A stretch of DNA of 60,972 nucleotides, filler included, from Hausera hauseri (taxonomy: Eukaryota): assembly GCA_046269625.1 (NCBI GenBank). It is 11 parts of 11 records of this genome, joined end to end, with 100 filler letters (N's around TTAATTAATTAA, not from the genome) between each part and the next. Parts side by side here need not be neighbours in the genome. Positions count along the whole stretch, not along the records: positions 24,716 to 32,748 come from JBJURY010806531.1; 10 more parts are not named here. The stretch is one strand, 5' to 3'. The notes under the pieces are model-generated. The model was not told the DNA's origin. It saw only the letters and a list, made by a program, of their open reading frames with translations, and did no database searches. Position numbers and translations under genes: made by a program. The number at the start of each line of letters is the position of its first letter. The stretch's first letter is position 1. Positions 11,897-32,848 of this stretch are shown here, piece after piece.

Positions 11897-12986
11897 GTGC
11901 TTACTGCTGGGGGTTGATGCAGTGGTGACTCATTGTCCCCCATGGAGCTACTTTAACAGTTTTGAATTTTTATTCTAATTTTACGTGCTTAATAGTTTTT
12001 ATTGTTTCAATTTTTATAATGACGTTTTTGAAAGTCAGTAGCTGAGGGAATAACGACATTTGGTGATAGACTGCACAACAAAAGAAAGAAAAGGAACTTC
12101 TATGCACGGTGGGGTGTCATTGCACATTTGAAACCAATTATCTGTTTGAAACAGGAAACAAAAAGAAACAAGCAGTGCTTATTATTTATTCAGTTTATCT
12201 TCTAGTATTTTTCAGTTTCTTTATATTTCTTTTTTTTCATTTCTCTCTGTCATTCTGATTGTTAATTGGCACGTAGTGTAAACCGCAAGTCCACTGGTTC
12301 AACGCGTGAAGGAACATCAATTTATGACAAGATGATGTCGACATACTTTTTTTTTGCTTTATGCGCAGTTGTCGCTTTGCAGCATTGTGATTTCATACTT
12401 CGCTTCCCCTATATCTTTTTTTTCTCAACCTTGGCAGCACAAGCTGTCATGTTTTACATAGTTCATTAGTGTGTATGCGGCTTCTGTGTCGACAAAGAGG
12501 ATGCTGAACTTTGGGTGTCAGTGAAAGACGGGTAGGCATACCCCTACATTGAAAGCCTAATCTGTTTCAAGAACTGTGCTTCGTGGCGCTGCGTTATTCT
12601 GCCGTCAATGCTGCGGTTGTATTGTGTTAATTTGTATTCAAGGAGTTTCTGATTGTAGCTGTACATTGTTCATCTCTTAATGAGAACTGCTTGTACTATT
12701 TTCATCTGTCGCCATGGTACAAGCCAAAGTGTTTTCCCAACTTGGTGTATTTGTCTTTTTAGTTCCTTCTTTTATCTACCTAGTTGCATCCAATAGACCC
12801 TGTTTGCAAGGAGCTATTGATATAGTTTTAACTGTTTCGCTTGTTGAGTGTCTTTGTTGATGCTGAGCCTGTTGTACGGTTGTTGGGAGTGGCTATTGTT
12901 CTACTCTAACTTTTCTTCTTCAATGAATTCTTTGTTTGTTCCCTTGTCTTACTCTTGGTTTGTTATCAGGCTTGTGATATCTGACT

Positions 12987-14177
12987 ATGCCATCTCCTTT
13001 GGTATTAACGAGGAGCAGCCCAACCAGGTTGTTGTCGAATACCATGTTTAATCGAAATGTCAAAGCGCTTCAGCGAGGCAGGGTTAGCAGTCCTCATTGC
13101 GATATCCACAAACTTGTAGCTGAGCAGATGCTTGACCGTCGTTCTTTTGTGAAAAGAGAGACACCTGTTGTACTCGAAGTTGGTGCGCATACCGGTTGGT
13201 ATTTGCGTCACATGTTGGAGAAGAAAATGCTTTTTGGACTGAAGCAGTATATCCAGACGGATATTAGTGAGGATCGATTGAATGAAAACTATGCTGTTGT
13301 GAAGGATCTGATCCCCAGTGGCGTGGAATTTATCCAGATTTGTTGTGACGAAGAGACGGATCAGCTTCCTAACCCGTTTGGGATACCTGAGAGGTCCGTT
13401 GACATGGTTGTTTCATGCCTATCGGCTCACTGGGTGAATAACTTAGAAACAACAATGGTGTCGATTAGGAAAACATTGAAGAAGGATTCATTCTTCTTGT
13501 TGTCCATGTTTGGTGGTAATACGCTGTATGAGTTGCGTTCTGCATTTACACTTGCAATGAACGAAATCTATGGTGGTGTCGGCACTCACATAAGTCCGAT
13601 GATCGATGGTGCCGGTATCTCGTCGTTAATGTTACAAACGGGATACAACCTACCGTCTATTGACCTGGACAGACATTTGTTATTATATCAGTCTCCTTTT
13701 CATGTGATGGAGCATCTGCAGAGTATGGGGGAGAGCGCATGTCATATTCATCGCCGCTCTTTGGGCCGTACTACGCTTGCGTGTGTTGTTGCTCTATATC
13801 AGCACTTGTACGAGAAAGATTTGTTAATTCCGGCCACCTTCGAGATCTTTCATGCTATTGCATGGTCTCCAGGTCCAGACCAACCGAAACCATTACAGCG
13901 AGGATCTGGGGCTGTACCATTGAATTGCATTTCCACATCGGAGCATCGTGAATTGCAGGCTGTTCTCGAAGAATACTCGAAAAATCCTACCGACAAGTCA
14001 CTTCAAGACAAAGCGGAGGAAATTCTCAAGAGGATGAGAGAATCGTCCATGAAAGATTTTGCTGCCAAAGGGTTAGACGTGCGCGAGGTGTCAACATCGT
14101 TTTCCGATATCAAACCTTCTAACGAAAGAAACAGTGACTTGGCAGCGTTTCATGACTCAGATGACAAGGAAAAATAG
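12987..14177 (+). CDS. NDUFAF5: NDUFAF5-like SAM-dependent methyltransferase/arginine hydroxylase (complex I assembly factor)
   Basis: Motifs MFNRNVKALQR, VLEVGA, DMVVSCLSAHWVNNL, MFGGNTLYELR, HLQSMGES, IPATF and QPKPLQRGS. No introns. Confidence 0.88.
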   Translation: MPSPLVLTRSSPTRLLSNTMFNRNVKALQRGRVSSPHCDIHKLVAEQMLDRRSFVKRETPVVLEVGAHTGWYLRHMLEKKMLFGLKQYIQTDISEDRLNENYAVVKDLIPSGVEFIQICCDEETDQLPNPFGIPERSVDMVVSCLSAHWVNNLETTMVSIRKTLKKDSFFLLSMFGGNTLYELRSAFTLAMNEIYGGVGTHISPMIDGAGISSLMLQTGYNLPSIDLDRHLLLYQSPFHVMEHLQSMGESACHIHRRSLGRTTLACVVALYQHLYEKDLLIPATFEIFHAIAWSPGPDQPKPLQRGSGAVPLNCISTSEHRELQAVLEEYSKNPTDKSLQDKAEEILKRMRESSMKDFAAKGLDVREVSTSFSDIKPSNERNSDLAAFHDSDDKEK

Positions 14178-14454
14178 ACTGTAGCCTTTGCTTATTGCGT
14201 TTCCACACGCTTTTGAGGATGTGGACGTAGATTATCTTCTGTTTTCCAGGACTAGTTGTTTTGTAATTTTTACAGAGCGTACGAGCAACAGTTTTGTAGC
14301 GGAATCTTGTCTTTGTTGTGACTCTTTGCTGTTGATGACACTATTTTTATTATTAACTGTCATTTACAGAGAATAATTACTGAAGTGCTTTGAATGCTCT
14401 TTTCACTATTTTTTCTGTTTCACTCTGAACAAAATTTAACGAAACTAAGTGACT

Positions 14455-14494
14455 TATTTTTTTTTTTTTGATTTATCAGTTTCCTCTTTTTTAG
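14455..14494 (+). promoter_or_regulatory. Polypyrimidine tract and AG, a likely spliced-leader trans-splice acceptor for gMDH
   Basis: A long T run and ttcctctttttt lead into AG just upstream of ATG 14499. The contig has same-strand, intronless, kinetoplastid-style gene organisation. Confidence 0.5.
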
Positions 14495-14498
14495 AGTG

Positions 14499-15476
14499 AT
14501 GGTACACGTTGCTGTTCTCGGAGCTGGTGGTGGTATTGGTCAACCATGCAGTCTCTTGCTTGCATTACAACTTCCTGCCAAGAGTACTTTATCTTTATAC
14601 GACCTTGCCGGTGTCGAGGGAGTCGCTGCGGACATTTCCCACATTGATCGCGACATTAACATTCGCTGGGCCCAGGGCTCTTTGCCACCGAAGCCATGTG
14701 ATCCCGAGTTAACGAAAATTGCCAAGGGCGTCGATGTATTTGTTATTGTGGCTGGTGTTCCTCGGAAGCCAGGAATGACGAGAGATGACCTACTAGGAAT
14801 CAACGCAGGCATTGCAATGGATCTAGTTACAAGTTGTGCAAAAGTTTCTCCGAATGCGTGCTTCTGTATTGTAACGAATCCTGTGAATTTCATTGTACCA
14901 ATTGCTGTGATGGGACTGAAGAAGCTGGGGCTGTATAACAAGGACAAAGTGTTTGGAGTGTCTAATCTTGATGTGGTCCGTGCGACACGATTTGCGAACA
15001 ATGAGCGCAACCCGCTACTATGCTCTGCACCGGTTCCCGTTGTCGGAGGCCACAGCGACATCACCATTGTGCCCCTCTTCTCTCAGGTTCCTGGTGCTGC
15101 TGTGTCTGAGAACCCTGATCGGCTGAACCAGATTGTGAAGCGGGTTCAAGATGCCGGCACGGAGGTTGTTAAGGCGAAGAAGGGCAAGGGTAGTGCTACA
15201 CTCTCCATGGCATATGCTGGAGCTGAATTTGCAATGAAAGTTATCAGCGGCTTGACAGGGCAGTCGAATCCGCTTGTGTACGCATATGTTGATACTGATG
15301 GAGGACACGAGCTTCGATACTTTGCACTTCCACTTCTTCTCGGGAAGACTGGTATAATCAAACGCTACCCGATTGGTCCAATGAGCGCAGCTGAGAAGAA
15401 GTTTCTGCAAGCTGCGACTGAAGCTCTGAAGAAGAACATCGCGGATGGTGAGAATTTTGCAAAAGCGAAACTATAA
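14499..15476 (+). CDS. gMDH: Glycosomal NAD-malate dehydrogenase (canonical); kinetoplastid
   Basis: Motifs MVHVAVLGAGGGIGQ, GVAADISHID, AGVPRKPGMTRDDL, TNPVN, GGHSDITIVP and GSATLSMAYAG. Ends in PTS1 -AKL. Confidence 0.95.
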   Translation: MVHVAVLGAGGGIGQPCSLLLALQLPAKSTLSLYDLAGVEGVAADISHIDRDINIRWAQGSLPPKPCDPELTKIAKGVDVFVIVAGVPRKPGMTRDDLLGINAGIAMDLVTSCAKVSPNACFCIVTNPVNFIVPIAVMGLKKLGLYNKDKVFGVSNLDVVRATRFANNERNPLLCSAPVPVVGGHSDITIVPLFSQVPGAAVSENPDRLNQIVKRVQDAGTEVVKAKKGKGSATLSMAYAGAEFAMKVISGLTGQSNPLVYAYVDTDGGHELRYFALPLLLGKTGIIKRYPIGPMSAAEKKFLQAATEALKKNIADGENFAKAKL

Positions 15477-15836
15477 ACATGTATCTAGCATGGCAAAAAA
15501 AAGAGGAAAAAATGGATGAAAAAAATAAGTAATAGTGTGAGCGTGTGTGTCATTTTTTAAGAAAAAGTAACATTGTTTTTATTACGTCATGAAAGATCTG
15601 CGAGTTTATAACTGTTTTGTTTTCAGTGTTATATTTTTCATTTTTTTTTGTCTGGATACGTGTTTCCGTTTGTATGTGGAATGTTGGTATAGGTTGTTTG
15701 ATGGGCAATTTGTTTATTGCCACTTGTTCTGTGCTTCTGTATGCACTTGTTTGTAAACTAGCTCTCTTTTGCATTATTCAGGTTACTGCACTTGTAATAG
15801 AAAATAATTATCGTCATTGTTTTTCAGTGAGACACG

Positions 15837-15915
15837 ATGGTGAACGTTGCTGTTCTTGGAGCTGGTGGTGGTATTGGTCAACCATGCATTCTCTTGCTTG
15901 CATTACAACTTCCTG
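15837..15915 (+). CDS. 5' end of another gMDH-type gene, cut by the contig end
   Basis: MVNVAVLGAGGGIGQPCILLLALQLP is nearly identical to the start of the 14499 gene. Confidence 0.85.
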
Positions 15916-17068
15916 NNNNNNNNNNNNNNNNNNNNNNNNNNNNNNNNNNNNNNNNNNNNTTAATTAATTAANNNNNNNNNNNNNNNNNNNNNNNNNNNNN
16001 NNNNNNNNNNNNNNNCTTACTGCTATTCTACATTTCTTGTCCTATAGAGTTATATGATTATCGTCCCTGTCTGACCGCAACAGCACAAAGTTAGATTGAA
16101 ACACACATTTATTTATCTTTTGTTCTTTAGCAGCAAAGAATAAAGAGCTGTTCTAACTGGCTTTCCGAACGCAAAGTGGTGGGTTTAATTCCCGGTAACA
16201 GCATTTCGACATATATTTTTTAAGAGGTTCCACAAAAGGTATCAGAGAAAATCTTTGGTAAAGTACAGGCGGCCTGGCGTTATGATGGCGCCATAAACCA
16301 GTTAGTTATGTGTCACTGAAACTGTGGCCATCAGCTCCACATTCGCCTGTCTGGGTAATTTTTACTTTTAGGAAACGTTTTGGTGGCTGAATAGAACAAC
16401 CTGGGCGTTATTAAATGTTCTTCTCTTTCGTTGTTGCTTAATTCCGTGTACACAAGTTGTCCATTTTTCTGGATAAATGGTGCTGCCTGGGTTAGTTTGT
16501 CTATGCTGTTATACAGCTTTGTGTGAATTAATGGTTGTGTTATCCAGTCTTCAACTGAGTGACATGTCAAAAGTCAGGGACAAGATAATTTAAAATGTTT
16601 TATTTTTTTTTATTCTGGGCTATTCCCGAAACAGTGTTCATAAAATCAAAATAGGCAAAAGCTTGAAGACATGTTAGATGACAAATTGACTGCCAGAAAA
16701 AAAAAGTCTCATGGAACTGGATCCGTTGGTAGGCTAAAAATGCAGACTGGATCAACATCACTAACTAGGTTATCAAAGACTGAGGACAGAATAAAATCAG
16801 TAGAAAGACAGTTGGCCGAAAAGTCTTGAAAACTCTTTGAAATACCTCTACACCAGAATTTCTAGAGGAGCGTCATTTATAAGTTAATATTAAGAAAGTT
16901 TATATTTAAAAAATTGTAATAATTGTCAGTTCGTGCGCGGAAAATACACATTACTCCATTTCCACCAGGGGAAATAAGCGATATGACTTCCCTTTGATGT
17001 TCTGCCTGTAGTTCAGTCAGCTTCTGATGTTCAGAAGGCAACATTGGCAGAGAAGACTCATGGCCAGA

Positions 17069-17568
17069 CTATCTCCTGCTTGCGGGGATTGTAAACGACG
17101 GTTCTAATCTCTGGGCCTGTCTACGCAGTTGTAGCAGTCTCGCCTCATTCTCCAGAAGTTGTTCATTGTTAGCGATGCTTGTGGCTCTATCCAACATATG
17201 TTTGAAAATGAAAGGGTTGGCGTTAAGAAGGAAACTTGGGTTCGCTTCCTCAGACAAGTCGTGTGCATGTTCCTCGTTAAGGCTCAATACTCTGTTATCA
17301 ATATAACCAGAAGCATCGGTCAAAGGATTAACGCCTTCAGTGCCATATGAGTCACCCGGAACTAGTCGCTTGCCCAGACCAAAAGAAAAGCCGTAGGGAT
17401 CAAGAGGTTGGCCGCGTCTTTTTCCTATGCCCATGTTTCCAAATCTGGGATCAAGCTTTGACTGGCGGCGGTAGGAATTGCTGTTGTCGTTGCCGAAGTG
17501 TCTTAACGCTGTTTGCAGCGCTGTGTCCACTTCTGCTCTCGTCATGGGTCTGCCCGGGCTGGCGGCAC
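17069..17568 (-). CDS. Last exon of an allatostatin-A/buccalin-like neuropeptide precursor
   Basis: Amidation and dibasic sites: RR-QSKLDPRFGNMGI-GKRR and GQPLDPYGFSFGL-GKR. A phase-1 splice acceptor (gtcttttttcag) precedes 17568 on the minus strand. Confidence 0.75.
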
Positions 17569-24715: not shown

Positions 24716-25314
24716 TTTGCAACTCAATATTCAATCGACACTTTAAACCATCATCATCGGGTACATGAGACATTTCGCGACCGATAAAATCAAACAACTT
24801 CGTTTTCTGCGCTGGTAAATCGACAGATTCCTGTTGCACGGTCGTTTCGTTTAACCTTATATCCACGTTTAATTGATGTAGAGCATTAGAAAGTTTATCC
24901 AAATTTTTACCCGAAAGCCGTTTTACACGATAGCTGTACTTGGGTGCACATAGGGATACGGGATCATTCAATGAAATGAGTATGGGCGTTTGCAGAAAAT
25001 GCATTTCATACTTGCGAAAAATTCGTTTCGGTAAAAATATCTGTGTTTGGCATGCCGACAGTTTTGATTTTCGTTTATGTATTTCAATCATTGCATTTCT
25101 GTTTTGCTACTGATGATGATTTCTGAGCAAGTTTCTGTTTCATTTCCTGACAATCGATCTGCAGACAGTTGCCCGATTTTTCTAATTGTTTGACATTAGA
25201 AATGTCCTTTTTGTAACCAAACAACCATGACCAATCTAAACTTTCATCATTCTCACAACTACCATTATCATCATCATCATTGAGTAGAATCGTTTTATCG
25301 TCGTCGTCTTCCAT
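24716..25314 (-). CDS. Polinton hypothetical ORF(s) downstream of the TBP-like gene (MEDDDDK.. and MIEIHK..)
   Basis: Two overlapping ORFs, 25314-25084 and 25091-24716, with TATAAATA 32 nt upstream of ATG 25314. No recognisable domain. Confidence 0.4.
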
Positions 25315-25379
25315 GGCAGTAATGTCTGAATGAACATTGTAATGGTATTTATAGTTTGTTGCTGTTGTTGTGCAGAGTA

Positions 25380-25839
25380 CATTATTTTGATTTACTAAAA
25401 CATTTGTGTGGTTTTTAATTTGATTAATAATCGGTTCATAGTCCACTGTCCTAATACCGAGTACAACAATTTTTCCACTACTAAACATATTGACACAAAG
25501 TAGGCAAAACAATGTCAGTCTCAGTGCAGGAAACAGTTCGGATTCATACGTACATTCAGTGGCCATTGATAATTTGTACAGATTAATTGATGGACAGTCT
25601 AACTGAGTTGCTACCGTTTTTGATTGGATTTGGTGAATGACAATTCCGAATGGCAGTAGTTTAGCATCTGTGATTGGTTTGCGACAACCCATAATACGAC
25701 ACTTTCCCGATTGAAATATGATAAATATAAAATCCGGTGGACATTTGAGAAAATACTGCCTCGGCTTCCATTGATTAAAAGGTAGTGTGTTAATGTCACA
25801 CTCGGTAACATATCCGCGATAGTTGATATTAGCTGACAT
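25380..25839 (-). CDS. TATA-binding-protein-like protein, Polinton-encoded; the ORF reads on to 25084
   Basis: Both TBP repeats are present: NINYRG..IIFQSGKCRIMGCR and INLYKLS..TYESELFPALRL..VNMFSSGKIVVLGIR. Confidence 0.8.
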
Positions 25840-25904
25840 TATGGAAACAGTGTTTATACTATAGCTATTTATATATGTGTGTGTAACACGATTATAAACA
25901 AATC

Positions 25905-26563
25905 ATGTGGTGAGGAAAGGATGTATTATTATTATATAAATAAAGCTGCAGAATGATGCCATTTTCCAGATTGTAAGCTCCAGTGGAAGTGGAAAAACAC
26001 ACTTTGTGTGTAAACTATTGCAGAACTACCGTGACATTTTCCATTCACCGCGGTACAATCATATTTACTGGCATTAGGGTGTTGGTGATGATGGTGAGTC
26101 CGGTTTGACACATCGGGAATTTTGTAAATTAAAATCGATAACGGTAATTGATGTGTTTCATGAGAAGTGGTATGAGAGATTATGCAACGGTGACGTTATT
26201 GTCATTGACGATTTATTTCAAGAGGCAACGAAACAAACCGACTTCAACAACCTGTTCACGAAGATTGCGCCGTGGCGTGACGGTTATTTTCGTTACGCAA
26301 AACATGTTCCATCAGGGCGGATAACATCGAACAAGAAATCTGAACGCACACTATTTGATGTTGTTCAAAAATCCCTGTGATCAGACTATCATTGATTTTG
26401 TTGCACGAAAAGCATTTCCTTACAACCGAGCCTACTTGATAGATCTATATCATGGTGCTACGACCAAGCCACACGGATACTTATTCATTAACATTACACA
26501 ACAGTGTCCCGATGACATGCGTGTACGAACAGACATTTTCAATCAGAAAGGTGTGTCTATAAA
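25905..26563 (+). pseudogene. Polinton A32/FtsK-like packaging ATPase
   Basis: Walker A IVSSSGSGKT, Walker B VIVIDDLF, and LFKNPCD and ATTKPHGYLFIN..VRTDIF. Interrupted by stops and frameshifts. Confidence 0.88.
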
Positions 26564-26597
26564 CAAATTCGAAAATCGACGACATGATTGTGATAAA

Positions 26598-26702
26598 ATG
26601 AAGAATTTCCGAAAAACAATTGTTAAATGTAAACCTACTACCAAGCGGGTGTCCGGCGGCAAGAAACGTGAATCAAAACGAACCACCGCTACAGTCAAGT
26701 GA
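26598..26702 (+). CDS. Small basic putative core (pVII-like) protein
   Basis: Rich in K and R, with a VSGG adenain-type cleavage motif, inside the virion gene module. Confidence 0.35.
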   Translation: MKNFRKTIVKCKPTTKRVSGGKKRESKRTTATVK

Positions 26703-26803
26703 TTAACCAATTTTGTGCTTCGAACAAAAACTAGATGCAAATTACCGTCACAGTGGTAACGGTTATAAACAACTACGTCCCATCAGCATCAATACGTCCA
26801 AAA

Positions 26804-27123
26804 ATGCGATTCATACATAGTCATACGTACTTTATTGCTTTGCTCAAGGCACCTACGAGACAAGCGAAACATGTTGCGATCATTCCCAGTTTGTAGTAGC
26901 CGATTTGATGGAAATTTTATACAATATCGTTGTGGGTCACATTGACATTAGAAGTGGAAAGCGGAATTTACTAAGGTATCGAAAACGACTCATTGGCCTT
27001 GCCAATGCTTGTAGTAAACGACTGAAACGAGAGGTCATGTACCAACAAGATGGAGGATTCCTTGGTGCAATTCTACCGATTGTCACGTCATTACTGGGTG
27101 GAATCGTTGGTTCTGCAGCATAG
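26804..27123 (+). pseudogene. Polinton small virion protein with an adenovirus pX-like hydrophobic tail
   Basis: Sequence EILYNIVVGHIDI..KREVMYQQDGGFLGAILPIVTSLLGG. Confidence 0.65.
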
Positions 27124-27234
27124 TATAAACAATGACTATAAGTATATGGTGATACGGCGATATGGGTGCATAATTTTCATATTTCTGTCCTATTTTAATA
27201 AATCTTTCATTTATGTTTTGTTCAAATTGATGTA

Positions 27235-28279
27235 ATTCAAGCAAACCGACACCATTGACGGCAGCGATGGTCAACGTGTGGTTCGATCCGCGTCATCCAG
27301 TCGGGTATACTGGCGTCGATAAGCTGGCAAAGACTGTCAGACTCGGCAACAGACCCAACGTTGGCTCGGGAAACAGTTAGCATACAGGCTAAACAAACCG
27401 ATAAGAAGGCGGTTTCCAACTCGCGCATACCGTGCTACCGGTGTAAATGTATGGCACATGGATCTGATGGAAATGATTTTGTATGCCAGCATCAACGATG
27501 GGTATCGGTACGTGCTGACATGTGTTGATGTGTTTAGTCATTTTGCACGTGCAATTGCTGCCAAATCTAAATTCGGTAGAGATTGCCGACGCTGTTCAGA
27601 CACTGATACAACAACAGCCTTGGCATTTACAAACGGATTTGGGTAAGGAATTCTACAACGCCCACGTTGCAGCGGTCTTGAAACGGTTTGGCGTAAACCA
27701 CTACTCGGTGTTTACCCTATACCAGGCTGCACTTGTTGAACGATTTATTTGAACATTACGCGGTCATTTAAACAAATTCTTTGCGAAGCAAGGCAACGAA
27801 CTCTGGGTAGAGGTACTGCCGGATATTATTTATGTATACAATCATTCGACACACCATGGAATCAACGGAATGCGCCCGGTTGACGTAATCGATGATTTGG
27901 ACATGTGGCTTTATCAAAACCGAACAAAATGATAGGCAATTAAACGCCAAAAATATTAAATCGGTGCTTACGTACGTATTTCGAAAATAAGTACGATGCC
28001 ATTCATTAAGAATTTCAATCAGAATTGGAGCGACGAGATTTTCCGCATTTCGGCAATCAACACAAAACAAACTTCTCTCATGTACATTTTAGAGGATGAA
28101 AAGGGTGAGGAAATACGCTGTAAATTCTACGAACAGGAACTGCAGGTACTACCCGAGAAACCCCATATGATATTTAGGAAATTCTATGTTTACGTGGCAA
28201 AGTTTCGAATAAACAATATCTCGTCAAGTGGCACGGATACAATGCACCGAGCTGGATTTTTGCATCACAGATTCAATGA
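27235..28279 (+). pseudogene. Polinton retroviral-like (RVE) integrase with a C-terminal chromo-like domain
   Basis: Motifs WHMDLMEM..YRYVLTCVDVFS, LQTDLGKEFYN, AALVERF, YNHSTHHGI, NWSDEIFRI, FYEQELQ and YLVKWHGY..SWI. Confidence 0.9.
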
Positions 28280-29276
28280 GCAGAATTTACTTGCTACTTA
28301 ATAGTAACAGATCATTATCACAAAATGATGACAATGACAATACCGTTAAATAGTTTAGCATGCACTTAAACCGACCGGTCAATTTACGCCAGGGAGCCTG
28401 GGAAGTGGCTTTGACGGAATTCACATTTACATTTTTATCAATAACAATACGTCGGAACAGTGGTATTTACTTTATCCGACAAGAAACGAACCTTATTTGA
28501 AGTCGTTTGCGGACAATCCGACACAATAACCGATATATTCTTCGCAATTATTCGCCAGAAAATTTTTCGGTTTATGCTTATTTTTCAAACTACCCTATGA
28601 AACTAATGCATCAAAATCCCATGGAAATGCAGTTTAATTCTATAGCTGATGCTCAGGCATGGGGTTTTCAATCAGTCAATGTACACTCAAAACGTCTACG
28701 GCTAGGTGGACATGTTATAATTGGTGAAAAATTGGACCTTTCATCCGATGCGGAATCTGATATTATAGTAAAGTGGACTAAGTCAGAATCAGTCTTCCGC
28801 TCATGTATTATACCACACGATTTATTAGTGGAACTGGAATTCTGTGAGTACGTCAAGAAAGTGGCTACATTACCTGTAGAGACAATTTTGCCTTTGATGG
28901 ATTATTGGCTCGGAAACTGGGTTTTTCAAAACGCGACTTTTATCAAACCATTGTTGGACAATTTATTGTTGCCAAATACAAACCGCAACTCTATGGAGCA
29001 TTTCATATAATCAACATTTTAATGGACTGAACCGAATCCGTACTCGTTGATGGAGAATGTAAACAACTACTGGCTTCTATCGAACTGGATTCTGACACGT
29101 ACAAAACATCGGATGAAACTGTTCGAGTTAATATGCTCAGACCCATGTACTTATCATTGTCTCACAGTATTGTGCACAGTATTTCCGTGTATATGCTTAA
29201 TGAATTTTGGGAACCCATTAAATTTCTGTTTGGGTCAACGACACATTTGACGCTACATTTTCCACGTCGCCGATAA
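28276..29276 (+). pseudogene. Polinton minor capsid (penton) protein 1
   Basis: N-terminus MSRIYLLLNSN..LRQGAWEVALTEF and C-terminus LVDGECKQLL..PMYLSL..PIKF..TLHFPRRR. Confidence 0.75.
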
Positions 29277-29312
29277 TAAACAAACTACGTCATCATCATC
29301 ATCGTCGAGATC

Positions 29313-30335
29313 ATGAGTATTTACATGGTGTTGCCGAGCAACAGTTGTCCGACGACTCGTCCGGACAATTCCGCTAGTGAATACGTTGTAGATTGGAACA
29401 ATCCTTTGGATTTATCTGGAAAATGGGTGGTTGCAATGACGGAATTTAACTTTCCCTACGCACCGGTGACATTGAAAGGTAGTATGAAAATAACGTATAA
29501 CAAGTTTGTTACTGAAACCAAAACACATTCTTGTCCTCTGACACTTACTGACAATAAATAACAGTTGGAGAATCGGCCATTTGCACGCCCAGTAAAAATT
29601 ACGGTGTATACGGCAAGATCGATGTTTTATTTTGGGGGAATACTTATGTTTTATGGCAAATTTTGAATTTACTGTTACCTTTGAGTCCTCAGAGATGGCG
29701 CAGAAATTTGGATTCAAAAATAGAGAGTACAAAGGTAAACGTATTAAAAGTGAATATGTTGTTGCACCAAGACTAAGTCCAGTATATTACCAGACAAGGG
29801 TGAAATTTACCAATACAACAGAAAGGGTATCAACGTCATACGTATCGATTGGAGACAATGTCTATTGTGAATCTGTAGCACACCTTTGTCAACACTTTTC
29901 TTCAAATCAAGAGTACAAGGCGATATTTAAAGTTTTCGAGTCAGATGCAAATGGGTATATTAAATTTGAACTGGATAAGGATTTTGTCGACATTTCATTG
30001 GATAATGTTTTGGCCATGGTATTGGATTTTGAAAAACAGCGGTTTTAGGCATCGAATACGAAGCCGCGCATGTTGCAACACTTAAATCCAAACTGAAAAC
30101 TGGACGAAGTCAAATGTACATTTACATGAACGTCACCGAACCAATTTTAGTGGGTGGAATACGTGTACCGCTACTCCGTGCAAATTGTCCGGAATGCAGC
30201 AAGTATACTGCTGGCGACAATGTCACTGTCAAGGTCAATAATCCAACGTACCTACCTGTCGCATCTACATCTATAAATAATGTTGAAGTGAATATTCACA
30301 ACCAGTCTAACCCTTCATTTCCGTTGAATCCATGA
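29313..30335 (+). pseudogene. Polinton minor capsid (penton) protein 2
   Basis: MSIYMVLPSNS..DNSASEYVV..LSGKWVVAMTEF, then MYIYMNVTEPILVGGIRVPLLR..NPTYLPV. Confidence 0.8.
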
Positions 30336-30712
30336 TTGTTTTTGAAATTGTTTCCATTTACAGTAAACCTCAGCAGGGCAGTAAACTGCCGTATTTTGTT
30401 GGTAAACAGTATGGCTCTGGATGGTTGCGTACATTGGCATGTTTAGCATTTCCAGTGTTGAAGCGTATTGGAGCCGTGGCAGCAAAATCAGCACAGGATG
30501 TACTATATGAAAACAAATCTATTTTACCATCACTGAAGGAACACGCCTAGTTAGAAATAAAAAGCGCTGCACCCGGATTTGTTGAATCAGTCTAAAAACA
30601 ATTCATTGGCGGTGGCTTGAGAAAACAAAAACGTGGTAGATCAGCTAGCTTTCCAACTATAAACAAACGTCGTCGTCGTACGATGTTCGAAAGATTGATT
30701 GATCGATTGATA
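30332..30712 (+). pseudogene. Polinton QxGxG-type virion protein (amphipathic, pVI/GasderminX-like)
   Basis: QYGSGWLRTLACLAFPVLKRIGAVAAKSAQDVL, with a basic tail FIGGGLRKQKR. Confidence 0.55.
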
Positions 30713-30717
30713 GATAA

Positions 30718-31950
30718 ATGGCATCTGCAAAATCTGAATTGTGTATATTTGACAAAGGCGTGCTATAAATTGTTATTGACAATGCAAAATTTGAAGAAAT
30801 CTACCCCGTTGATTCTGTTTCAACGGATGATAACATTGACATTCAATTTAACATTATGGCGTCGGACAATGAATATCTCGATTTGAACGATTCGCCACTC
30901 TATGTAAAATTCATTGTTAAAAAGGGTGCATCAACGGTTCTCGCTGCAACAGACACTGCCACACTGGCCAATTACCTTTTCCTCACACTGTTCCAGGAGG
31001 CTTCACTGACTCTAAACAGCGTCAAAACTGAAGGCAACACCAGTCTATACAGTATCAAAGCACTCACTGAAACGGCTCTAAATTACAGTACTCTCATGAA
31101 ATCGACTGATTTGACGAAAACCATCGGACATGATGCCACTGCAGCAAACCGTCAGGCATGGGTGGCAGAATCAAAAGCGTTTTACTGAATTAGAAGTGCT
31201 TTACACCGCTGTACTTTTTCGATCAGCCGAAATACATACTGCCCGGTGTTAAAGTCATGATTCGGCTCAAACGCAGCGGCAATGTCTTTTGTTTGAAAAC
31301 TGCAGTTGCAAATCTCAAACCCATACTAAAAATTACCGAGGCACGATTATACGTACGTCGTATAAAGGTAGAACCATCCGTGCTCATGGGACATCGATTG
31401 GGCTCGGAAACACAAAATGCCTGTTACCCATTACAACGCACAGAACTTGTCTTTTACACCATATCCAAAGGTTCAACTACATTTTACAAAGATGCACTGT
31501 TTGTCGACATGCGATTGCCGAAATTTGTGCTCGTTACATTTCAAACAACTGCTCAACAAATGGGCAGTTATACCACCGATTCGGAAACGTTTACCCATAG
31601 AAATGTGAATTACATCAGTTTGCGTAAGAATGCCGATTTCGTTGAGATATACAAGCAGGATTTCGAGACCGGCGATTTCGTTTGCACATATATGCAATCT
31701 ATCCTGCGTAACATGGGTTTGCTGAACAAAAATGTCAACATTGGCATATCGATGGATTTGTACCTATCCGTTCTTCACCTTTGTCCTGGCACCGGATTAT
31801 GACGTTGAACAGACTCAACTACCTCAGCAGGGAAACCTGAGATTGGAGGTTCACTTTGCTAAAGCATTGAAGCAATCTACGGTGATGTACATTTACGGCG
31901 TATTTGATGCCGAGGTTGAAATAGCGAAAAATGGAACCGTCATGGTATAA
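30718..31950 (+). pseudogene. Polinton double-jelly-roll major capsid protein
   Basis: MASAKSELCIFD..EEIYP, EYLDLNDSPLYVKF, QPKYILPGVKVMIRLKRS, KITEARLYVRRIKV and GNLRLEVHFAKAL. Confidence 0.88.
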
Positions 31951-32059
31951 ATAAAACCTTCTTCTTCTTTTTCCTTTTTGTACCATGAAGTAATTTATTA
32001 TCATTATTACTATTATAATTAAATCACGTTTTACGTTTAGCTCAACTGAACTCAGTCAC

Positions 32060-32363
32060 TATGGAAAACTGCTCTTGGGTATGAAATTCCGCAGTGCTTT
32101 TACTGGACCGTGTGCCGCGTGACTTACGACAAAATGGTGGCGGAGGTTTCATTGTCAATACACACAGTTCATCGTTACCAGGCGAACATTTGATTGCGGT
32201 GTACGTACATCCGACCGTCGTCAACTTATTCGATCCGCTCGAATTTTATTACCCGTCATGGTTAGTTTCTCAAATAGAAACACAATCATATCATCGTGTT
32301 GAATATAATCGACTTCATTATCAACATCCACTTACCGTATTGTGTGGACATTACTGCTTTTAG
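32060..32363 (+). pseudogene. Adenain-type cysteine maturation protease
   Basis: FIVNTHSSSLPGEH(L)IAV..FDPL..QHPLTVLCGHYC contains the His, Asp, Gln and Cys catalytic motifs. Confidence 0.85.
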
Positions 32364-32848
32364 TGTAAATCTGTCCATTAGCAGCATTTCCAGAAAATAA
32401 ATCCACGTATTTAAAATAGTTAACGCCGTAAAGTGTATTTCAAAAAAATTATCAATTGCAATCCATACATGTTTTATTATTTATATATCATGATAACGTT
32501 GCTTTCAAGTAAACCTCACACTTCAAGAATTTCAGTACGCAGTTCATTATAGTACTTTGTATTCTTGTTTATAAATAAATCGAGCAAGAACAATGTCAAT
32601 AACTTTAACAATGAAAAACATTATATAAAAAGACACAATATATAGTCACTGTGATCTAATAAATTTCAACATTACTGACGCGCAACCAATTACGCTTATC
32701 CGCTCTGCATTTTCCAAATTGTCTATTCGACATTTTCCTTGAAGGGTANNNNNNNNNNNNNNNNNNNNNNNNNNNNNNNNNNNNNNNNNNNNTTAATTAA
32801 TTAANNNNNNNNNNNNNNNNNNNNNNNNNNNNNNNNNNNNNNNNNNNN

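Follow-up and report, generated by a model that had tools for sequence, protein, structure and literature searches.

Whether, and if so how, an animal Polinton passes from an integrated element to a virus is an open question, and one small contig in the Hausera hauseri assembly GCA_046269625.1 bears on it. The window analysed here, 60,972 nucleotides (nt) in length, consists of unrelated small contigs joined with spacers (N44-TTAATTAATTAA-N44) between them; our finding is confined to a single spacer-bounded contig, 24716-32748, which holds only one element-end region. This contig is a Polinton fragment that encodes a short protein with a TATA-binding-protein (TBP) fold and carries, before its packaging and structural genes, a recurrent box whose form in intact relatives is YATAAAC(A/G). 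We propose, with a probability of roughly 0.6, that this box, about 30 nt before packaging, core and capsid genes, would be a variant TATA element read by the element's own TBP and switching host RNA polymerase II (Pol II). The box and the TBP likely form a private early-to-late switch on the host enzyme, the boxed genes being presumably late, to judge by their class. A putative late box and a candidate activator make such a switch testable, with no more than a 7-base motif and one small protein.

Results

Enrichment and distribution of the box

In the contig, TATAAACA occurs 7 times against 0.75 ± 0.83 expected, a count reached by none of 500 dinucleotide shuffles, and it ranks first among 168 8-mers of the same composition; the remaining 51,859 nt of the window contain 4 copies (whole window, 11 against 4.16 ± 1.85 expected; reached by 0/100 shuffles). 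An earlier note on this DNA, which had proposed the box as the site of the encoded TBP, is borne out as regards this enrichment, and all the sites that it listed are present. Looser forms are weaker in the contig: YATAAAC is found 9 times against 4.1 expected (8/500 shuffles) and ATAAAC 12 times against 8.7 (86/500, not significant). Sites that had not been listed are AATAAACA at 28208, TATAAATA at 30272 and, on the minus strand, CATAAACG at 25079 and TATAAATA at 25873.

A search with the TBP alignment gave 80 metagenome loci, and the ATPase alignment added 9 loci from genome bins, picked regardless of TBP (2 with TBP, 7 without); a PolB search gave 22 distant viral contigs with no TBP match (L091-L112, not dereplicated). 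When grouped at 80% identity over 300 nt, the first 89 loci reduce to 58, and L001, the single distant match of the TBP alignment in IMG/VR, was excluded from the counts. Scans of IMG/VR with the window TBP, major capsid protein and ATPase and with a classic ATPase gave no relatives. Loci L082-L090 are Polinton contigs within nine bacterial genome bins, evidently mis-binned DNA of eukaryotic elements, and one TBP-bearing Polinton carries a gene with a ubiquitin-conjugating (E2) domain (L020:222-719, minus strand).

Among the 58 dereplicated loci, ATAAAC is the top non-repeat 6-mer (412 against 312 under an order-3 Markov model). When YATAAAC is counted within 80 nt upstream of the first ATG, against a background of 907 in 22,608 windows (4.0%), it precedes 22/25 ATPases, 16/19 copies of open reading frame (ORF) C, 10/13 pentons and 9/11 major capsid genes in loci with TBP, versus 0/20, 0/3, 0/1 and 0/5 in loci where no TBP was found, these being partial contigs of which only 7 are classic Polinton-type and the other 22 distant PolB relatives. 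PLA2-like genes are boxed, mostly at 28-35 nt, and so are all four copies of a short ORF starting Met-Gly in TBP-bearing loci. PolB is boxed in 1/5 loci with TBP and 0/22 without; in TBP-bearing loci the TBP gene itself is boxed in 1/47, ORF B in 1/11 and ORF D in 1/7, the box of the last usually lying about 100 nt upstream, in the penton end. The claim that the box precedes most genes, TBP included, thus holds for packaging and structural genes and fails for the TBP gene; that it is rarer where no TBP was found is borne out by the ATPases. Upstream of 22 genes in the 7 Polinton loci without TBP, no alternative motif is enriched.

Before the boxed classes, position 1 is T in 57, C in 26, A in 6 and G in 3, and position 8 is A in 77, G in 13 and T in 2, counts that are circular for classes chosen as boxed. 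The ATPase row alone is free of this circularity: C follows ATAAA in 24/39 cases before ATPases versus 2/32 before TBP genes. Nothing beyond position 8-9 is conserved in 92 box-anchored windows of relatives; the longer extension aactacgtc..catca is indeed present at the two sites said to share it, but relatives do not conserve it, and the contig holds 14 copies of CATCAT.

The box behaves as a DNA-level element tied to the start of the next gene, because it tracks the ATG, occurs at coding 3' ends in all three frames and fixes rare synonymous codons. Half of the ATPase boxes (11/22, the nearest box being taken) lie 27-31 nt from the ATG. Across intergenic gaps of at least 90 nt, 8/12 boxes are found at 22-31 nt from the ATG, whereas distances to the stop upstream span 57 to 362 nt; where there were several boxes, the one nearest 30 nt was taken, which tightens the spread. 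Codons ATA-AAC are used at 6/6 penton sites and 6/6 ORF D sites (background use 0.33 and 0.31), and at the ATPase end rare synonymous codons are fixed in 18/19. Since the genes are packed head to tail, the box often falls within the end or the stop of the preceding gene; in the contig, the overlap with or abutment on upstream stops described in the earlier note is seen at 26764, 27124, 29275 and 31946.

Two classes of promoter

Upstream of TBP genes, TATAWAWR is found in 19/43 (background 4.7%) and a TCAYW initiator at most 25 nt from the ATG in 28/43 (background 11.9%); in 11 of those 19 genes with TATAWAWR, the two are spaced 30-32 nt apart. The pattern is mainly that of the window's subfamily. 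In the window copy, a canonical TATAWAWR (TATAAATA, 25866..25873, minus strand), whose first T is 34 nt upstream of the ATG of TBP, is likely the host-type early promoter of the gene. The TBP gene therefore appears, from the motifs ahead of it, to belong to a different, host-type promoter class, and the proposal of a dedicated promoter system needs to be narrowed: the box lies before packaging and structural genes and is linked to TBP, whereas the TBP gene itself stands outside the system. An initiator about 30 nt downstream of boxes was considered and rejected, none being present in box-anchored windows.

YATAAAC does not conform to the canonical Pol II element (TATAWAWR or YWTAWADN), since position 7 is C. 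In PMC1935006, the promoter consensus is given as YWTAWADN and the second Phe pair is placed at step 7/8, where it intercalates; an excerpt of PMC4457894 reports that a yeast TATA element is inactivated by C at position 7 and that C can induce a Hoogsteen pair. As in herpesviruses, a non-canonical TATA is limited to structural genes here, the exceptions being the integrase, which is mixed, and a zinc-finger ORF (both considered below).

The TBP-fold protein

The TBP-fold gene (25366..25839, minus strand; Pfam TBP E 2e-10) encodes about 150-158 amino acids (aa) at family length; the window ORF has no stop at the end point of its relatives and reads on into the next, acidic ORF, to 25084. Relatives number 281 at E<=1e-6 among proteins of 79-347 aa, the range searched, and family length is 144-184 aa (5th-95th percentile). 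AlphaFold predicts a confident saddle for the window protein (pLDDT 92.9), without the long helix of the N-terminal repeat; in the window's subfamily, this repeat is missing that helix and almost the whole of the short one. In Foldseek, the protein is matched by cellular TBPs (TMq 0.60-0.70) and by viral TBPs, so that the two-repeat saddle of PF00352 is recovered by Pfam, AlphaFold and Foldseek.

What departs from PF00352 is the DNA-binding surface. Instead of four intercalating Phe and a hydrophobic DNA face, the family has three Phe and Asn, Arg, Met and Ser substitutions. Across 188 TBP sequences, F42, F103, F119 and P104 (beside the third Phe) are kept, and N6 (182), R48 (185), M50 (186), S73 (181) and N117 (186) are near-invariant. 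The latter five align, respectively, to Val, Val (Asn in M. jannaschii), Thr, Asn and Leu at strand positions of archaeal and microsporidian TBPs, positions which we take to face DNA. In the same HMMER alignments the loop with the first Phe is shortened, the alignment of the first repeat being weak (E ~3e-4). The N-terminal repeat of TBP reads the 3' half of the box. Motif and protein thus depart from their host counterparts in matching places: the motif at the one base that host TATA excludes, the protein on the surface that corresponds to it. The acidic residues of the C-terminal stirrup are kept (E99 in 183/188, E101 in 185/188), and from these residues the family TBP is predicted to interact with TFIIB.

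A second TBP subfamily (L056-L083, e.g. L061:9860-10369), of 167-180 aa, has kept the N-terminal helices and shows the same polar substitutions and the same box; its elements carry boxed PLA2-like genes and KilA-N.

The element and the sites of the window copy

The fragment, a decayed Polinton or adintovirus (24716..32487), is delimited by the spacers, by a gene order like that of intact relatives and by read-contig depth. The minus strand holds TBP and two ORFs; the plus strand holds the ATPase, small ORFs, integrase, two pentons, ORF D, the major capsid protein and a protease, in the order of intact loci, where PolB is encoded together with an A32-like ATPase, integrase and adenain. Most genes in 24716-32748 are broken by stops or frameshifts, which marks the copy as decayed. 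As many as 73,171 contigs of public run X1 align to the element, mostly 90-95% alike, so that it represents a high-copy family, and their depth drops sharply past ~32487; the high copy number emerged from an analysis of four runs. The protein-primed PolB is absent from the fragment and present (PF03175) in relatives with the same module, L020 and L061. The retroviral-type integrase expected of a Polinton is recognisable even in the broken copy, and the A32-like ATPase, adenain protease and capsid genes are found with it (Pox_A32 and Peptidase_C5 matches in relatives), capsid assignment resting on homology and position, not fold. In the longer relative loci, no RNA polymerase gene was seen in gene maps or by Pfam.

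With the last base of the 7-mer and the starts supported by relatives as reference points, the boxes lie mostly at 31-33 nt, and of the spacings of about 12-60 nt given earlier, those called too short for a TATA box mostly reflect mis-assigned starts; the 12 nt of 25858 (minus strand) is truly short. The ATPase box (25893..25900, plus strand, as are all features to the end of this paragraph and in the next) lies 40 nt before 25940, the start-equivalent in relatives; ATG 25905, formerly taken as the ATPase start, is discarded, as it opens one codon followed by a stop. The A32-like packaging ATPase (25940..26570), broken by frameshifts and stops, has no ATG at this position in the window copy. 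A box within its 3' end (26558..26565) lies 33 nt ahead of a short basic ORF (26598..26768, ATG 26598) that an internal stop interrupts. This unannotated ORF between ATPase and ORF C measures 45-72 aa in relatives, with 38-56% Lys+Arg (L007, L013, L019, L038 and L040), and ends W-x-x-L-stop on the next box; it is a candidate protamine-like, DNA-condensing core protein. The box over its stop (26764..26771) lies 33 nt before ORF C (ATG 26804), and the one adjoining the ORF C stop (27124..27131) lies 31 nt before the Met-Gly ORF (ATG 27162), ahead of the integrase. The Met-Gly ORF (also in L007, L019, L038 and L040, boxed at 14-26 nt) overlaps the integrase start, and it is to this ORF, not the integrase, that the right box distance belongs; its sequence would allow myristoylation.

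The broken integrase (27260..28270) is recognised by Pfam rve (E 6e-4, under the curated cut-off) and by BLAST to intact relatives. A AATAAACA variant in its 3' end (28208..28215) lies about 61 nt before penton 1 (ATG 28276), and another on the penton 1 stop codons (29275..29282) lies 31 nt before penton 2 (ATG 29313). In the 3' end of penton 2, upstream of ORF D, TATAAATA (30272..30279) occupies the position where 6/6 relatives carry TATAAAC. The box in the ORF D 3' end (30658..30665) lies 53 nt before the broken major capsid homologue (30718..31950, ATG 30718; BLAST to intact relatives of 403-427 aa), whose putative capsid identity comes from its size and position in the Polinton module, there being no Pfam match. 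Finally, TATAAATA on the capsid stop (31946..31953) lies 32 nt before the mini-exon (ATG 31985) of a broken, adenain-type protease, predicted to be spliced (31985..32363; BLAST; Peptidase_C5 E 1e-7 in relative L029). The first exon of the protease would comprise only 5 nt (ATGAA), with a predicted AT-rich GT-AG intron of 51 nt (31990-32040) behind it; this ATGAA/GTAA layout after the capsid stop is common to L013, L020 and L040. That a boxed gene should carry such an intron points to Pol II, and the shortness of the intron, together with the family context, suggests an animal host. The protease is unspliced in other subfamily members (L029, L042 and L082), and ORF B has intron-like sequence ahead of its first ATG in L013, L016, L026 and L032.

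On the minus strand, the TATAAATA sites at 25873 and 25353 do not stand as boxes and fit the canonical TATA instead; the second (25346..25353) is at the family-length TBP end, 32 nt before the acidic ORF (ATG 25314). Site CATAAACG (25072..25079) is followed 19 nt on by an ATG close to where the conserved ORF B starts, and a similar site is found ahead of ORF B in L007, L009 and L017.

Other contigs of the window hold unrelated features. Those at 11195-15967 and 1225-2877 carry tandem intronless malate dehydrogenases ending in SRL or AKL, a methyltransferase and a CCR4-like leucine-rich-repeat nuclease, a layout which is reminiscent of kinetoplastid glycosomal genes and suggests a second organism in the assembly. 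An ORF at 17069-17545 (minus strand), without a Pfam match, has repeated amidated-peptide-like units between GKR/KRR and presumably resembles an invertebrate neuropeptide precursor. A 177-nt inverted match (95%) at two contig starts (32849-33025 and 41854-42030) encodes a basic helical ORF, by impression like the ORF C-like proteins of Polintons, and the pair is possibly made of fragments of another element family. A long simple repeat array of the TTCG/TTCA type lies at 6535-11000, on a contig of its own.

Discussion

A proposed private late promoter on host Pol II

The observations can be joined in a simple scheme. Host TBP/TFIID would transcribe the TBP gene and other non-structural genes from the TATA and initiator that lie ahead of them. 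The 150-aa viral TBP would then bind YATAAAC through its polar DNA face, and its intact acidic stirrup would recruit host TFIIB. Transcripts would begin about 30 nt past the first base of the box, with leaders of 5-10 nt as in early genes. Host TBP disfavours C at position 7, and so integrated copies would keep their virion genes silent until the viral TBP builds up. More tentatively, and at somewhat less than even odds, one Polinton clade may have evolved an orthogonal TBP-TATA pair, in which a lone TBP of 150 aa reads a TATA variant avoided by the host and recruits host TFIIB and Pol II on its own. In the same tentative claim, the N-terminal helices bound by host regulators would have been stripped, the origin would be independent of the herpesvirus system, and a swap like that of a sigma factor would turn a silent transposon into a virion producer.

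Several observations weigh against a box read by the viral TBP. There is no excess of initiators behind boxes (11/68 against the 11.9% background), some boxes lie 50-105 nt from the ATG (major capsid protein, ORF D), and the choice of box in the long gaps noted above favours a narrow spacing. The integrase is mixed (boxed in 7/17 loci with TBP versus 2/17 where none was found), and the conserved zinc-finger ORF within the boxed block is boxed in 0/10. In the window copy, four sites are motif variants, and a box also precedes TBP (TATAAACA, 25851..25858, minus strand), at the only short, atypical spacing. The comparison loci without TBP are incomplete, mostly distant and not dereplicated. Moreover, a single branch (support 85/73; 84% of bootstrap trees) sets all 27 ATPases from TBP-bearing loci apart from the rest, so that the co-occurrence of box and TBP amounts to one phylogenetic event, and descent alone could link motif and gene; the clade spans subclades with ATPases only 33-39% identical. 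Lastly, PDB entry 1qn3 is, by its title, a crystal structure of wild-type TBP on a TATA variant, C(-25), and host TBP could for that reason still read YATAAAC.

It is on the last two points that the strongest rival draws. The box would be a weak TATA variant for host TBP/TFIID, perhaps active only on amplified, nucleosome-poor replicated DNA, and the viral TBP would act otherwise, for example as a sponge for regulators of host TBP or as a repressor. Positions 1-6 and 8 match the host consensus, and with TBP and box in one clade, descent linkage would suffice. We nevertheless consider this unlikely: the excerpt of PMC4457894 ties C at position 7 to a loss of activity. Host TBP alone poorly explains why the excluded base should be selected before ATPases and not before TBP genes, and a decoy would need no invariant, remodelled DNA face.

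Less probable again is an initiator-type late element with the start inside it and leaders of about 30 nt, whose reader would be some other factor, viral or host, or else the viral TBP in a geometry unlike that on TATA. Baculovirus TAAG and poxvirus TAAAT are elements of this type. The lack of an initiator downstream of boxes agrees with it, a distance of some 30 nt to the ATG would also suit a leader, and other conserved ORFs (zinc-finger, KilA-N) occur in part of the family; against it, the longer loci show no RNA polymerase gene, the motif is a TATA variant, and its first base lies about 37 nt from the ATG, like the TATA of early genes (mostly 35-47 nt).

That the box is a variant of AATAAA, serving the gene upstream as a polyadenylation or termination signal, is very improbable; the earlier note had named polyadenylation as a possible objection. 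Boxes are indeed enriched 13-fold in the last 110 nt of genes (93 in 22,990 nt of 3' coding ends versus 35 in 114,233 internal nt) and frequently overlap stop codons, but across long gaps they follow the next ATG at about 30 nt, not the stop. TBP gene ends are boxed in 7/13 cases with a gene of a boxed class next, in 3/12 with another ORF next and in 1/22 where no same-strand ORF comes next; PolB and ORF B ends are boxed in 0/6 and 0/10. The box at 25893, divergent from TBP, has no same-strand gene upstream of it in the contig. The poly(A) role was rejected on these grounds. Largely refuted, too, is an origin by chance in AT-rich DNA or as a side effect of amino-acid conservation (YKQ, SIN, INK), for although the loci are 53-73% AT and the bare 6-mer is not significant in the window copy, the sites fall in three frames and in non-coding DNA, with a synonymous bias and a split between gene classes.

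If a box read by the viral TBP is the right explanation, it would provide a second instance, much simpler and apparently independent, in which a viral TBP redirects host Pol II, with a polar face convergent with that of ORF24 from KSHV (Kaposi's sarcoma-associated herpesvirus), and a natural altered-specificity TBP useful for studies of TATA recognition. The box also serves as an annotation aid: it exposed the overlooked basic core-like ORF, the Met-Gly ORF and the predicted spliced protease.

Comparison with known systems

The Polinton protein shares with cellular TBP (PF00352, on TATAWAWR) the fold, the C-terminal repeat with YEPELFP and three intercalating Phe; unlike it, the Polinton TBP has a polar DNA face, is about 20-24% identical, and is encoded by an intronless gene within a mobile element. 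The element resembles adintoviruses with TBP-like genes in its module of PolB, integrase, ATPase, adenain and capsid. The legends of PMC8502044 and bioRxiv 10.1101/697771 (Starrett et al.) list such genes in some MELD viruses, and in the accessible text of both the word promoter occurs 0 times, with no motif, mechanism or TBP family analysis. In the open-access PMC and bioRxiv literature, we found no report of a YATAAAC motif, mechanism or promoter logic in Polintons.

TBP folds are also encoded by nucleocytoplasmic large DNA viruses (NCLDVs) and mirusviruses (B263R of African swine fever virus; PMC5825884). Virophages resemble Polintons as small dsDNA elements whose virion genes are preceded by conserved late motifs. 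Transcription relies on an RNA polymerase of their own in NCLDVs and on machinery borrowed from giant viruses in virophages; in the longer Polinton loci, by contrast, no RNA polymerase gene was seen, and the predicted spliceosomal intron points to host Pol II.

The closest parallel is the TBP (vTBP) system of beta- and gammaherpesviruses (KSHV ORF24, Epstein-Barr virus BcRF1 and human cytomegalovirus UL87; TATT/TATTWAA), in which a virus-encoded TBP fold goes with structural genes that have a minimal, non-canonical TATA ahead of them; early promoters of host type and host Pol II would be common to both. Like the Polinton TBP, ORF24 has a polar, Asn-rich DNA face in place of a hydrophobic one, and this face is needed for late genes, according to PMC12529657. 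Among TBP candidates of 79-347 aa there is no multidomain protein of the ORF24/UL87 type, and no set of five partner factors appears in the Polinton gene maps. ORF24 is large, works in a complex of six factors, does not have the acidic residues for TFIIB, has four Phe and goes with a TATA altered at position 4, whereas the Polinton TBP is a stand-alone protein of 150 aa that has kept the acidic stirrup and lost one Phe, and its motif is altered at position 7. By analogy, then, the Polinton box would work like the herpesvirus vTBP/TATT system without being a member of it.

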